Of a stretch of DNA of 7,107 nucleotides, positions 4,373-7,107 are shown piece after piece. Position 1 is the first letter of the stretch, and every line of letters begins with the position of its first letter. The stretch comes from a virus, in the IMG/VR virus record IMGVR_UViG_3300008224_000199; one strand, 5' to 3'. The position numbers and the translations under genes are program-made. The notes below the pieces were generated by a model that saw only the letters and a program-made list of their open reading frames with translations, did no database searches and was not told the origin of the DNA.

Positions 4373-4567
4373 TCACTCGTCTTTAATAATTTGGTAATAA
4401 CTCACTAAAGCTACTTCTATCAACTCCGCGTTGCTCTCTGGTTGTCGTTTCAGCCATTCAAGTAAGTAGGGCGGTAACTTAATCCCTAATTGTTTTTTCT
4501 TGTCCTCTTTGAATGGTCTCCCGCCTTTGTTTTTCTCTATTTGTGCCATTAGTTTACACTTCCGCAT
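4373..4567 (-). CDS. Ribbon-helix-helix (CopG/Arc-like) DNA-binding protein, 64 aa, or 58 aa if it starts at 4549
   Basis: A basic N-terminal tail (KNKGGRPFKEDKKK) is followed by a predicted beta strand (QLGIKLP), helix A (PYLLEWLKRQ) and helix B (NAELIEVALVSYY). The Met at 4549 forms a TAATG stop/start overlap with the upstream ORF. Confidence 0.65.
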   Translation of the reverse strand: MRKCKLMAQIEKNKGGRPFKEDKKKQLGIKLPPYLLEWLKRQPESNAELIEVALVSYYQIIKDE

Positions 4568-4752
4568 TTTAGTCGTTTAAAGTAGTTTTTAGCCTTGTTC
4601 TCTGTATTCCATTGCTTTATTAACCCTTTTTCTTCTATGTCGCATATTGCGCCTTTATATTCTGTTTGACCTGTGAATCCGTCATAATCATTAATACAAA
4701 TGTTAAATAATTCAGGGTTTAGTTTTATTTCTTTGATTGAGATAGTAGCCAT
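4549..4752 (-). CDS. Hypothetical protein, 67 aa; first gene of the minus-strand operon
   Basis: ATG at 4752 is preceded on the minus strand by AAAGGA plus an A-run spacer. The composition is non-repetitive and protein-like (MATISIKEIKLNPELFNICINDYDGFTGQTEYKGAICDIEEKGLIKQW...). It is coupled to the RHH gene. I recognise no family. Confidence 0.55.
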   Translation of the reverse strand: MATISIKEIKLNPELFNICINDYDGFTGQTEYKGAICDIEEKGLIKQWNTENKAKNYFKRLKCGSVN

Positions 4753-4943: not shown

Positions 4944-5191
4944 AATCCTTACTTATCAATAACTTACGAATCCTTTAAAATCAATAACTTACATCATTTT
5001 TATACTTGTAACATTTAATCAAGTATTGAATTGAAAACAGACGAGCCTAGCCCACATTCTTCCTTTCACCTTCGATACTCTCATAAAATAAAACCTGTAC
5101 TTATTTCGATTCCTCATAATTTCGCCTGTTTGATTTTATGTAACAGTAATCAACTTGAATCCTTACAATTTCGCCTGACCCCATAAAATAA
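4944..5191. repeat. Iteron-like direct-repeat field in non-coding DNA
   Basis: atcaataacttac occurs at 4955-4967 and 4980-4992. A 21-mer, ga(t/a)tcct(c/t)a(t/c)aatttcgcctg, occurs at 5108-5128 and 5157-5177 (49 bp apart). cataaaataa occurs at 5082-5091 and 5182-5191 (100 bp apart). aatccttac occurs at 4944-4952 and 5158-5166. Confidence 0.6.
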
Positions 5192-5280
5192 GAACAAAAA
5201 CCACTTCACACTAACAAATGCCTTTTTTTAGAAATGATATTCGTGATTTCGTTTACAGGTAAAACATAAGTAAACATTAA

Positions 5281-5337
5281 GACGATTGACGACGAATGAC
5301 GACGACTCACGGAGGAGGATGGAGGAGGATTGAGGAT
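5281..5337. repeat. Purine-rich short tandem repeats (TGACGACGA-type followed by GGAGGAGGAT-type)
   Basis: The sequence reads gacgattgacgacgaatgacgacgac, then ggaggaggat ggaggaggat tgaggat. It is a locally GC/purine-rich island in an otherwise AT-rich intergenic region. Confidence 0.7.
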
Positions 5338-5380
5338 TTTTTCTTTTCCAGCGGTCGCGGTTGCCATTGATAAGAATGTG

Positions 5381-5426
5381 AGAGTCCACATACTATAACC
5401 AGTGGACTCTTGTCCCGTATCTGGAA
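5381..5426 (+). other. (+)-strand replication origin core (Ff-type nicking hairpin plus initiator-binding region)
   Basis: There is a perfect 9-bp inverted repeat, agagtccac (5381-5389) / gtggactct (5402-5410), with a 12-nt loop, followed by tgtcccgtatctggaa. Compare the f1/M13 origin as I recall it: GAGTCCAC-GTTCTTTAATA-GTGGACTCTTGTTCCAAACTGGAAC. The genome also encodes a gpII-like initiator. Confidence 0.65.
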
Positions 5427-5519
5427 TTTAGCACATATATTTTTCTTTTTTGTTTACAAGTCGTAGTGTTATCGGTATAAGCAAAAAATCGCAATATCGT
5501 GTTTTGGGGGTTTGGTGCG

Positions 5520-5617
5520 AACTTCGCATAATGTGATTTGGTCATTATGTATAAAACAGTGCGTTGAAAATTTTAGGCAATGCGCTGTTTTTTACATAGT
5601 GGCTATTATGCGAGGTT
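5520..5617 (+). other. dif-like attP: two inverted XerC/XerD-type sites able to fold into a forked hairpin (CTXphi-type)
   Basis: The outer stem pairs 5520-5532 (aacttcgcataat) with 5605-5617 (attatgcgaggtt), 12/13 bp. The inner stem pairs 5546-5566 with 5578-5598 (18 Watson-Crick, 2 G-T and 1 mismatch in 21). An asymmetric bubble of 13 nt (5533-5545) against 6 nt (5599-5604) separates them, and the loop is 5567-5577. The arms resemble dif: TTCGCATAA (XerC side) and TTATGTATAAA (XerD side). Confidence 0.6.
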
Positions 5618-5782
5618 TTTTATTTTTTCTTCTTTACGATCACAAGCTTTTAAATAGTCTTAATCTTTAATTCATTCTGAAAAAGATATACCAAAAAAAA
5701 TAAGGTTTTTCTCTTTGGGGTTTTACTCTTGCCTTATAGTGAAATTTCTTCTAAAAAATACTGTTTTCAAAAAGGTCTTTTT

Positions 5783-5809
5783 AGTACGGGTTCTTGTGAC
5801 ACCCGTACT
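5783..5809. terminator. Perfect 9-bp hairpin downstream of the minus-strand RHH gene; possible terminator or ssDNA structural element
   Basis: agtacgggt (5783-5791) pairs with acccgtact (5801-5809) across a 9-nt loop. On the + strand it is preceded by ggtcttttt and followed by ttagtt. On the minus strand a T5 run comes only 9 nt after the stem, so it is not a canonical terminator in either direction. An adjacent palindrome ttcgga-ct-tccgaa lies at 5814-5827. Confidence 0.3.
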
Positions 5810-5832
5810 TTAGTTCGGACTTCCGAATTTAT

Positions 5833-6048
5833 TCATGACATTGTGGTGTTATTTTCAACTCCTGCTTCTATTCTTTTTAGTCCTTCTTCTATTATTTCGT
5901 GTAGTAGTTCGCTTTCTGTAAGTGGCTTTCTATTTGAGTTTATAAGTATTTTATTTATTTCTATGCTTTTTTTCCTTAGGTTTTCTTCTTCATTTTTTTT
6001 TAGTCTTATGCTTTTCATTTCTTTCACCATATAAATATTATTTTTCAT
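5833..6048 (-). CDS. Small ribbon-helix-helix repressor, divergent from the initiator gene (RstR-like position)
   Basis: The C-terminal ~60 aa of ORF 5833..6153 read as beta strand (KSIRLK), helix A (NEEENLRKKSIEINKIL) and helix B (TESELLHEIIEEGLKRIE). Candidate starts are Met at 6048, 6030 or 6018; the last has GGTGA 5 nt upstream. The 6049-6153 extension would run through the initiator promoter and start codon, and it looks non-protein-like. Confidence 0.6.
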   Translation of the reverse strand: MKNNIYMVKEMKSIRLKKNEEENLRKKSIEINKILINSNRKPLTESELLHEIIEEGLKRIEAGVENNTTMS

Positions 6049-6051
6049 CTT

Positions 6052-6130
6052 ACATGTGAATTTGTTGACATGTTTATGTGTTTTTGTGTACATTACTACA
6101 TACTGTATTAATGTACACATGTGAATTTGT
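6052..6130. promoter_or_regulatory. Divergent promoter/operator region between the RHH repressor and the initiator gene
   Basis: The 14-bp direct repeat acatgtgaatttgt is at 6052-6065 and 6117-6130. There are multiple ACATGT/TGTACA palindromes (6069-6074, 6087-6092, 6112-6117, 6117-6122). On the + strand, -35 TTGACA at 6065-6070 is followed after 18 nt by TACATT at 6089-6094. Confidence 0.5.
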
Positions 6131-6135
6131 ATTTT

Positions 6136-7107
6136 ATGTTTGAATTTATCCAATTAATTGACGGGCTACACATGTATCAAGATCATGAGATAGCTTTACC
6201 TTTTTTAGGTGATACCCGTGAAATTACTGTTGATGTTCAAACGGGCGATTTTCTTGCAGAGCGTCAGCCTAGCTATACTTATGAGGGTTCTTATACAACT
6301 TCTATTTTGATTAGGCTTTCTGGTCAACGTGTCACTATTTCTCGTGGTAATCCTTCTAAAGTAAATCGTTTAGATAATTTGTTTGGTTACAAGACTGTTG
6401 ATGAATGCGTTTTTGTTTATAACCAAATTCTTTTGTCTTTGGGTTTACCGCCTTTTACTCGATGTACTAAGCGTTGGCAGTTGATGGGCGAGGATGGTAA
6501 AAAAGTTAGAAATTTTAGTAATGGTGCGATTATTACTGAAATTCACACAACCACTAATAAATGTGTAGGTAAAGGAAATGTTAGGGATTATTTACGCGGT
6601 ATTTCTACTCAACGCTTAAGAAATTCTATCCCGCATTTAATGCCTAATGGTTGTACTGTTCAATGGCTTTCTAAATTGGGGAATGCTTCCTTAGTTCATT
6701 CTTCTGTTTATGACAAAGCGAACGAAATTGAATTACATCAACTTCCTAAAATTAAAAGGGCTTTTGGTGAAACATCTGACGAATACAAACAATTAAAAAA
6801 AGTTCATGAATACTGTTTAGAAAAAGGCGTTGCACGTTTTGAAAATAAAATAAAAGCAAGATCATTAAAAAGAGATGAACTCCAATACTGGGGGTTATCC
6901 GACTATTCAATACTAGATAAAAAACAATTAGAATTTTTAAATATAGATAAAAAATTAAGTGTGAATGCTATGACTATGCAAACAATAAGCGAATTATTAA
7001 AAGAAGAGGGCGTATGTAAATCGATTCAAGCTGCTAATGCTACGTCTTCTTACTATTTCATGTGGTTACAGGGTCAAACTTTTGATCTTAAAAAAACACA
7101 GGTTAGG
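6136..7107 (+). CDS. Replication initiation protein (Ff gpII-like), N-terminal 324 aa. It runs off the window end and continues at 1..294.
   Basis: My own translation from ATG 6136 has no stop to 7107. It is missing from the ORF track because no stop falls inside the window. Motifs match M13 gpII as I recall it: NPSKVNRLDNLFG / SPAKVLQGHNVFG, ITEIHTTTN / ISRIDATFS, GVARFENKIKARSLK / GLVRFEARIKTRYLK. Confidence 0.85.
   Translation, partial: MFEFIQLIDGLHMYQDHEIALPFLGDTREITVDVQTGDFLAERQPSYTYEGSYTTSILIRLSGQRVTISRGNPSKVNRLDNLFGYKTVDECVFVYNQILLSLGLPPFTRCTKRWQLMGEDGKKVRNFSNGAIITEIHTTTNKCVGKGNVRDYLRGISTQRLRNSIPHLMPNGCTVQWLSKLGNASLVHSSVYDKANEIELHQLPKIKRAFGETSDEYKQLKKVHEYCLEKGVARFENKIKARSLKRDELQYWGLSDYSILDKKQLEFLNIDKKLSVNAMTMQTISELLKEEGVCKSIQAANATSSYYFMWLQGQTFDLKKTQVR
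6985..7107. repeat. Terminal redundancy, copy 2 (identical to 1..123)
   Basis: This is the same 123-nt string as the window start, and it is in frame within the initiator ORF. Confidence 0.95.

Follow-up and report, generated by a model that had tools for sequence, protein, structure and literature searches.

The locus analysed here raises the question of which replication protein acts on an origin hairpin of Ff type when it is found in a genome whose sole initiator belongs to another clade. The window, by which we mean the whole stretch of 7,107 nucleotides (nt) that was analysed (IMG/VR virus record IMGVR_UViG_3300008224_000199), represents an inovirus genome that closes as a circle of 6984 nt, with 123 nt repeated at its ends and a G+C content of 34%, and the first-pass annotation had rightly called it an AT-rich inovirus. 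It carries the hairpin of an Ff (f1/M13/fd) plus-strand origin at 5382..5409 (+ strand), and its initiator gene (6136..7107, running on into 1-294 of the circle; + strand) encodes a product of 380 amino acids (aa) that belongs to the gpII superfamily and, within it, to an If1-like ('W') clade. The 380-aa protein is the sole initiator encoded in the window. Conservation of the hairpin had been read as a sign of strong co-constraint between this element and the genome's own gpII-like initiator. Our analysis supported the origin itself and pointed to a different partner. With somewhat better than even confidence, we propose that the Ff-like hairpin is an additional origin, not cognate to the window's initiator, within a block that was exchanged recently, and that it may be used in trans by an initiator of the type encoded by another, co-occurring inovirus (L139), while the window's own initiator would act at a different element, located some 400 bases further downstream at 5784-5829.

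The string described for 5381-5426 was present exactly, as a hairpin at 5382-5409 (8-bp stem GAGTCCAC/GTGGACTC, 12-nt loop ATACTATAACCA) and a 3' part, TTGTCCCGTATCTGGAA, that runs up to 5426. The window contained a single match to the hairpin pattern, and 200 dinucleotide shuffles contained none. The f1 sequence given earlier for comparison was also right according to NC_003287, in which M13 reads GAGTCCAC-GTTCTTTAATA-GTGGACTC-TTGTTCCAAACTGGAACAA at 5766-5811. In a gapped local alignment of window 5382-5426 with the M13 core, 36 of 45 columns were identical and there were 2 gaps. The alignment score was 41, compared with 21 +/- 2.3 (maximum 30) in 200 shuffles of the whole window, and the hairpin region was the top match to M13 domain A within the whole window. 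The description of the element as a 'near-identical' copy held for both 8-nt stem arms and the TCTTGT after the stem, all of which were identical to M13, but not for the loop, which has 12 nt instead of 11 with 4 differing aligned positions and a 1-nt gap, nor for the inverted repeat that follows. The loop sequence, ATACTAT/AACCA, agreed with the consensus of the hairpin family (...YTNT/AAY...) and contained the T/AA nick motif. In Ff, the initiator nicks supercoiled DNA site-specifically, and this is needed for initiation and termination (PMC5405960, PMC11765958). The gpII protein protects 5774-5813 and nicks between T5780 and A5781, and domain A (5769-5819) is required for initiation and termination alike (PMC5405960). 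Aligned to T5780/A5781 of M13, the nick in the window hairpin is predicted to fall at T5396/A5397.

The sequence immediately 3' of the hairpin was less well preserved. In f1, the initiator-binding inverted repeat TTGTTCC-AAACT-GGAACAA has arms complementary at 7/7 positions, whereas its counterpart in the window (5410..5428, + strand; TTGTCCC-GTATC-TGGAATT) is degenerate, with an arm complementarity of 3/7. The spacer of this repeat varied among close relatives, being GCTTA in L139 and AATAT in a further locus, L209, and the 'CTGGAA' match to f1 is probably a coincidence produced by substitutions in this variable spacer. The core is followed by an AT-rich stretch (5427-5505, 79 nt) placed as is the Ff replication enhancer (domain B, which has IHF sites), and by this positional analogy it may have the same role (PMC5405960). 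The stretch was 100% conserved with L139 and L209 and was not conserved in more distant members of the family. The initiator ATG at 6136 lies 727 nt past the hairpin, in line with the earlier estimate of ~700 bp, while in M13 the distance from the nick to gene II is 225 nt.

The origin core was too short for BLAST, and pattern scans were therefore used; neither blastn with 5340-5470 nor megablast with the complete genome turned up anything useful among GenBank phages. A scan of IMG/VR for GAGTCCAC-N9-14-GTGGACTC yielded at least 120 loci, mostly on inovirus-sized contigs. Among the matches listed, an initiator was identifiable in 83 loci; all 83 were Ff-gpII-like, with phmmer E values of 1e-40 to 1e-166 against M13 gpII and matches to either M13 gpII or the L139 initiator, and none of these hairpin-linked IMG/VR initiators matched that of the window. 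The hairpin stood upstream of the gpII-like initiator on the same strand, at distances from -11 to about 1260 nt. Loops of the family fell into several classes, among them that of Ff (GTTCTTTAATA), a large one (GTCTTCTAATG) whose hairpins precede palindromes of the TAGTCCCAAATTTGGGAA type, and a third class with a 12-nt loop, RTACTATAACMA, that was found at 18 IMG/VR loci and to which the window's hairpin belongs. A palindrome with at least 6/7 complementary positions came after the hairpin in 50 of 85 distinct origins, compared with 4% of shuffles. The repeat arms of the nearest subclass (L106, L101, L030, L076, and L139) and of the window were only 3-5/7 complementary. The window hairpin was identical to that of L106 at 37/37 positions, and its likeness to most subclass origins was confined to 31-37 nt. 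On sequence grounds, the segment 5380-5416 is thus a genuine Ff-family plus-strand origin core of the 12-nt-loop subclass, and the proposal that the element is a homologue of the Ff core was borne out. The members of this subclass share the hairpin with the window but encode a matching gpII-like initiator, which the window does not. In loci with a 12-nt loop the hairpin-to-initiator distance was 615-1260 nt, and in L139 an attP and a minus-strand open reading frame (ORF) likewise lie between the hairpin and the initiator. Given this, and the range of distances in the family, the organisation of the window could no longer be considered unusual, as it had been when compared with Ff only.

The window's initiator was then placed among its own relatives. 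The 380-aa protein matched PF05155 (4.7e-19) and PF05144 (1.5e-5) in Pfam and phrog_702 (5e-85). Its identity was 23% to M13 gpII (pairwise E 1e-4), consistent with the weak resemblance to Ff proteins remarked on before, and 24% to the L139 initiator. The nearest cultured relatives were those of If1 (49%), Alteromonas phiAFP1 (47%), and Pseudomonas WX_Y (44%), and the protein did not cluster with the initiators of hairpin-bearing loci. Its residue Y192 lies two residues off the position aligned to the catalytic Tyr of M13 (PMC5405960). The GAGTCCAC hairpin was absent, with 1 mismatch per arm allowed, from 24 loci of at least 5 kb carrying the window's initiator type, and these included the complete tandem units L129, L130, L136, and L253 as well as the cultured phages If1, phiAFP1, and WX_Y. 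With two mismatches per arm, no GAGTCCAC hairpin was found in contigs of initiator relatives at 63-81% identity or in two IMG/VR relatives at 48%; homologues of the If1-like initiators numbered 302. Co-constraint of the hairpin with the window's own initiator was therefore unsupported on both sides, in that the hairpin travels with Ff-gpII-like initiators, and these 24 loci lack it, relatives of the window's initiator having another element in common (the W element, see below).

Comparison with L139 (phage 'N', a 6921-nt IMG/VR contig) indicated where the hairpin might have come from. The window, L139, and L209 have an origin block in common (5336..5505, + strand) that holds the hairpin and the AT-rich 5427-5505, and over its 170 nt the window was ~97% identical to L139. 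Downstream of the hairpin the differences from L139 in this block amounted to four substitutions only, all in the inverted-repeat spacer; 5423-5497 was 100% identical, and an exact 90-nt repeat shared by both was delimited at 5416-5505. The 393-aa initiator of L139 aligned with M13 gpII along its full length at 34% identity (E 9e-68), and its closest relatives were the initiators of 12-nt-loop loci. That the hairpin block is so close to that of a phage encoding the matching initiator type also spoke against co-constraint within the window. Upstream of the block, 5006..5335 (+ strand) is non-coding and has its homologue in the non-coding right end of L139 and L209. Over 5006-5505 the window was 76% identical to the right end of L139, and elsewhere the two were about 67% identical in coding sequence or could not be aligned. 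The region 5006..5335 carries a window-specific insertion of 53 nt (5282-5334), which is purine-rich with GACGA/GGAGGA repeats (GACGATTGACGACGAATGACGACGACTCACGGAGGAGGATGGAGGAGGA) and is absent from the homologous region of L139 and L209. The fold of 4990-5440 as single-stranded DNA (ssDNA) was no better than that of shuffles (z 0.12), and no packaging-signal-like long hairpin or minus-strand origin was identified there.

Two further contigs bear on the history of the block. In L209, the initiator was about 80% identical to the window's at the nucleotide level, and the order of Ff-like hairpin, attP, and W element was found. The origin block of L209 was 100% identical to that of L139, while the rest of L209 was 73-86% identical to the window, which argues that the block is maintained or repeatedly exchanged and not decaying. 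The contig L128 (1-11051, ENA ERZ534229 NODE_5236) contained the window's phage at 100% identity, linear from 5520 and running into L139 sequence, with the switch from one phage to the other falling inside the shared block. L128 may be a mixed prophage array or an assembly chimera formed via the exact repeat, and our argument is not rested on it. The departure of L128 from the window at 5505 was considered as a prophage right end (attR) and rejected, as it is merely the end of the exact repeat with L139. To the left of the window's phage, L128 contains DNA with a degenerate copy of the W hairpin (394-418). Separately, a segment of 82 nt was 85% identical between window 5625-5706, after attP, and L139 5933-6013, after the Zot gene, and its displacement is further evidence of mosaic rearrangement of non-coding DNA.

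If most relatives of the window's initiator lack the Ff-like hairpin, another element might serve them as an origin. Besides the attP core TTCGCATAAT, complete genomes of this clade had just one specific non-coding sequence in common, a second origin-like element, termed the W element, which in the window occupies 5784..5829 (+ strand) and consists of the hairpin GTACGGGT-TCTTGTGAC-ACCCGTAC, TTT, and the palindrome AGTTCGGA-CT-TCCGAATT. The window copy has the 8-bp hairpin, the loop core CTGTKAC, the TTT, and a palindrome with inner GGA..TCC. With a relaxed pattern, the W element was detected in 42 of 44 loci with the window's initiator type, and 30 distinct W elements preceded an If1-like initiator, upstream on the same strand. 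It was also present in If1, phiAFP1, silverpheasant213, Dulem virus 53, WX_Y, and Pseudomonas phage 17897; an early scan had left If1 and phiAFP1 without it, a result overturned when the relaxed pattern found the element on the other strand reading. A stricter pattern run on metagenomes and genomes matched 62 metagenome contigs and 8 contigs of metagenome-assembled genomes (MAGs). These MAGs carried the labels Methylomarinum, Piscirickettsiaceae/Methylophagaceae, and uncultured Gammaproteobacteria; two more were labelled Enterobacteriaceae and Saccharibacteria. A loose version of the pattern gave 45 loci in IMG/VR, none with a W-type loop or W-type initiator, and these were probably chance matches. 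L139 had no copy of the W element.

The W element showed covariation. When 41 distinct copies were aligned, the palindrome, which lies outside the search pattern, had compensatory changes at 6 of 8 pairs. It was 88% paired, compared with 31-52% in slid registers, and its covariation score was reached by 0 of 500 shuffles. The hairpin stems covaried across hosts (GTACGGGT, GTTCGGG, GTGGGGGT) with the loop core CTGTKAC constant, and the palindromes differed. Except in If1, where it is found in the major intergenic region, the element adjoined the 3' side of a small ORF on the minus strand, with the initiator beginning about 300-990 nt further downstream, and this placement held even beside unrelated minus-strand genes. 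A role of the 5784 hairpin as terminator of the minus-strand ORF was rejected as insufficient, as sequence, loop, and architecture are kept across hosts and beside unrelated minus-strand genes; the hairpin with its T-run could still be a terminator on the plus strand. Judged by architecture, conservation, and position, the W element is most likely the cognate origin of If1-like initiators, for which it is here put forward as a candidate, because a conserved hairpin with a variable palindrome also marks Ff-type origins and because the palindrome of pT181-family origins sets specificity. We know of no described origin for the If1-like initiator clade (If1, WX_Y, phiAFP1) and of no published description of the W element.

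These observations fit a genome that would be a mosaic, Xer/dif-type integrating inovirus. Its replication module, of the If1-like clade, would run in the order attP, W element (5784-5829), divergent small ORF, and 380-aa initiator, with the W element as the likely origin for this module. The right-end non-coding region (5006-5505), homologous to that of L139, would have received its L139-type origin in a recent exchange. Since the hairpin is linked to the Ff-gpII clade, is missing from 24 loci of the window's own clade, and lies in a block close to that of L139, the likeliest nickase of the Ff-like hairpin would be the true gpII-like, 393-aa L139-type initiator acting in trans. The neighbour's initiator would then replicate the window's genome, or terminate rolling-circle synthesis there, and hybrids would arise in tandem prophage arrays. 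It is this pairing of nickase and site, and the cross-replication that would follow, that we infer from the homology, the distribution of the hairpin over initiator types, the shared block, and the second element.

Several observations weigh against this proposal. The W element is not exclusive to the window's clade, as 10-11 instances preceded other initiator types. In 7-8 contigs the initiator that follows it is of a third type, of roughly 340 aa, and in 3 short contigs (L203, L245, and L236) it is truly gpII-like. In such contigs, a separate hairpin abuts the initiator gene. The W element in L203, L245, and L236 stood about 640 nt upstream of an Ff-type hairpin that abuts the gpII-like initiator; L195 likewise combined a gpII-like initiator and its own hairpin with a distant copy of the W element, and in contigs of the ~340-aa type a conserved hairpin peculiar to that type, AAAGGTGCA-CGGTTAATAATA-TGCACCTTT, precedes the start codon by about 20 nt. 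The W element could accordingly be a module common to these phages, for instance one for packaging, termination, or the origin of the minus strand, and not an origin of the plus strand. These contigs cut both ways, in that they weaken clade specificity and yet fit extra origins held across a community. Furthermore, the pairing of either element with either initiator is read from sequence comparison. Only one initiator is encoded in the window, and it is not obvious what would use the Ff-like hairpin in a cell without an L139-type phage. As the two initiator types are members of a single superfamily (PF05144/PF05155), cross-recognition of a conserved nick hairpin is conceivable. The joining of both phages in L128 may be a chimera.

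The third initiator type was also found in an element of its own. L250 (141-3146) is a satellite-like tandem unit of 3005 nt with a ~340-aa initiator, its own hairpin, an attP-like forked hairpin, and a W element, and L197, L211, and L224 were grouped with L250 as a small satellite-like element of this type.

We weighed three other explanations of the Ff-like hairpin. The hairpin could be a working plus-strand origin nicked by the window's own 380-aa initiator, with nick-site recognition constrained across the gpII superfamily. The 380-aa protein being the only initiator in the genome agrees with this, as do its two gpII Pfam domains and the position of Y192 near the aligned catalytic Tyr of M13 (PMC5405960). 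The hairpin is moreover intact and identical to functional-looking copies elsewhere, L209, which has the same initiator type, retains it at the same place, and the W element also occurs with other initiator types. We nevertheless considered it unlikely that the hairpin is nicked by this protein. The 24 hairpin-free loci of the same initiator type, among them tandem units and cultured phages, imply that the clade must use another origin, the hairpin occurred with the other initiator clade in every informative locus among the matches listed, and the block around it is nearly the same as in a phage that has the other type of initiator.

Alternatively, the hairpin could be an unused passenger, left by recombination in the shared non-coding region or by rolling-circle hybrids in tandem arrays. 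This would suit a genome that is clearly a mosaic and an inverted repeat that, on the 3' side of the hairpin, is degenerate in the window, where GGGA in one arm has become TGGA. CTX-type phages are also known to form hybrids from arrays and with other Xer-exploiting phages (PMC4439123). However, apart from the spacer substitutions, the hairpin and 90 nt downstream of it were 100% kept in the window, L139, and L209, while adjacent non-coding DNA had diverged by 13-60%. The nearest functional-looking origins (L106, L139, and L101) are also without a strong inverted repeat, and the degeneracy is therefore no evidence of decay; a mere relic seemed to us quite improbable. A joining by the assembler of the hairpin region of L139 to this genome would also account for the arrangement, and the exact 90-nt repeat (5416-5505) present in both phages, at which L128 switches between them, agrees with this. 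Yet the upstream sequence (5006-5335) is the window's own diverged version (about 76% to L139, with the private 53-nt insertion) and is contiguous with window genes. The same sequence was found 100% identical in L128, L209 independently showed the same arrangement, and the circle closes through a junction (5506-5519) that is absent from L139 and L128. An assembly artefact is accordingly very improbable.

Our proposal of a second origin used in trans can be extended, tentatively, to the community in which these elements occur. It is possible, though we would not favour it on present evidence, that filamentous phages and satellites which integrate at dif and reside together, and which have three or more initiator types between them, carry each other's plus-strand origins besides their own. 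The window and L209 would then combine an If1-like initiator with an Ff-type origin, L203, L245, and L236 would combine a gpII-like initiator and its own hairpin with an If1-type element, and the 3-kb tandem satellite of L250 would combine the third initiator type and its own hairpin with an If1-type element. The initiator of a neighbour could replicate, terminate, or mobilise each of these elements, and rolling-circle synthesis over mixed prophage arrays would continually produce mosaics.

The region between the Ff-like hairpin and the initiator gene had been said to contain attP and a repressor gene. An attP-like forked hairpin was indeed found at 5520..5617 (+ strand), in which two dif-like sites in inverted orientation, AACTTCGCATAAT/ATTATGCGAGGTT and CATTATGTATAAAAC.../...GTTTTTTACATAGTG, lie on either side of an asymmetric internal bulge. 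Folding of 5500-5850 as ssDNA gave a z of -5.8 with the stem-bulge-stem at 5520-5617. The left end of the linear phage in L128 is exactly 5520, with other phage-like DNA on its flanks. In the relative L130, which is in tandem next to host genes on a 122-kb contig, the host and copy-to-copy junctions (9332, 15012) begin at GTTCGCATAAT, and the left end at 5520 looks genuine. The 122-kb contig (L130/L131, JGI 3300083240) contains two tandem inovirus copies of 5680 nt, then two tandem 2.9-kb elements with helix-turn-helix repressor genes and a 343-aa initiator (PF05144, weak PF02486, PF05155), a layout that recalls the CTXphi/RS1 array, in an uncultured host. The small divergent ORF (5833..6120, - strand; 95 aa from the ATG at 6120) stands where a repressor would, and may be one by its position. 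It belongs to phrog_5642 (no assigned function), had no Pfam match above the cut-off, and showed no similarity to the annotated repressor of phage 17897, so the repressor in the earlier description is one by position and not by homology. A repeat search between this ORF and the initiator gene identified operator-like repeats (6052..6130, no strand assigned), with ACATGTGAATTTGT in two exact copies 65 nt apart and a 16-nt inverted repeat at 6085-6119 (TGTGTACATTACTACA / TGTATTAATGTACACA); these resemble operators and may function as such.

The remaining genes of the window are those of an inovirus, including a Coat_B major coat protein, a DUF2523 (pVI-like) protein, and a Zot/pI protein. Between the coat-protein region and the DUF2523 gene lies a 409-aa ORF (1534-2763) that is cysteine-rich with a recurring C-x-DGS...C-P motif, followed by a Thr/Ser-rich linker and a C-terminal hydrophobic segment. 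It had no Pfam match, and its C-terminus weakly matched PHROG families without assigned function. Two further ORFs, of 64 and 67 aa, overlap each other on the minus strand at 4373-4752, downstream of the Zot gene, and had no family assignment. Nothing in the window matched Rfam at E up to 1.

The Ff origin is the classic model of rolling-circle initiation, and its nick hairpin is now seen to be kept with initiators only 34% identical to gpII. The window adds a natural case of this hairpin in a genome with only one initiator, which comes from another clade. Were an initiator to act on it in trans, the hairpin would amount to a minimal device of roughly 40-170 nt for exploiting the replication protein of another integrative filamentous phage, and would provide a mechanism for the hybrids in prophage arrays that are so far known mainly from CTXphi and its partners. 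The W element in turn offers a testable candidate origin for the If1-like initiator clade (If1, Pseudomonas WX_Y, Alteromonas phiAFP1).

Among known systems, Ff resembles the window at the hairpin. Domain A of Ff (M13 5769-5819) has the same stem arms, the TCTTGT, the loop CT.T/AA around the nick, and an AT-rich stretch following. Unlike Ff, the window has a 12-nt loop with 4 substitutions and does not keep the gpII-binding 7-bp inverted repeat, its initiator is only 23% identical to gpII and comes from a clade otherwise without the hairpin, and attP and a divergent ORF intervene. In the arrangement of its replication module, the window resembles CTXphi/RS1 of Vibrio cholerae. RstA of CTXphi belongs to the Rep_trans family (PF02486). 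The window's initiator differs from it in having PF05144/PF05155 only and not Rep_trans, and there is no sequence similarity to CTXphi. As in CTXphi/RS1, an origin-like element comes after attP and before a divergent regulator gene, with the initiator gene next in order, and tandem arrays of different elements at one site occur in relatives of the window (L129, L130-L132). The attP of CTXphi is likewise a forked ssDNA structure formed from two inverted dif-like sites (PMC4439123). It is established that CTXphi is produced by rolling circle from arrays and gives rise to hybrid genomes (PMC4439123), whereas integration and array-based production are predicted for the window phage. In CTXphi-VGJphi hybrids, one filamentous genome has the replication signals of two co-resident Xer-exploiting phages (PMC4439123). 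The window would resemble them in carrying replication signals of two different phages. In the CTXphi-VGJphi hybrids, two whole genomes are joined as a cointegrate and each brings its own initiator, whereas the window shares only a block of a few hundred bases, without a second initiator. The pT181 family offers a further parallel, in which the nick hairpin (ICRII) is conserved next to ICRIII. As in pT181-family origins, a family-conserved hairpin is followed by a variable palindrome in both hairpin families described here, an analogy of architecture only, as the pT181 initiator family is PF02486 and there is no sequence similarity. In the pT181 family, the DNA-binding domain of Rep targets the palindromic ICRIII of the origin and thereby sets specificity (PMC4797284).

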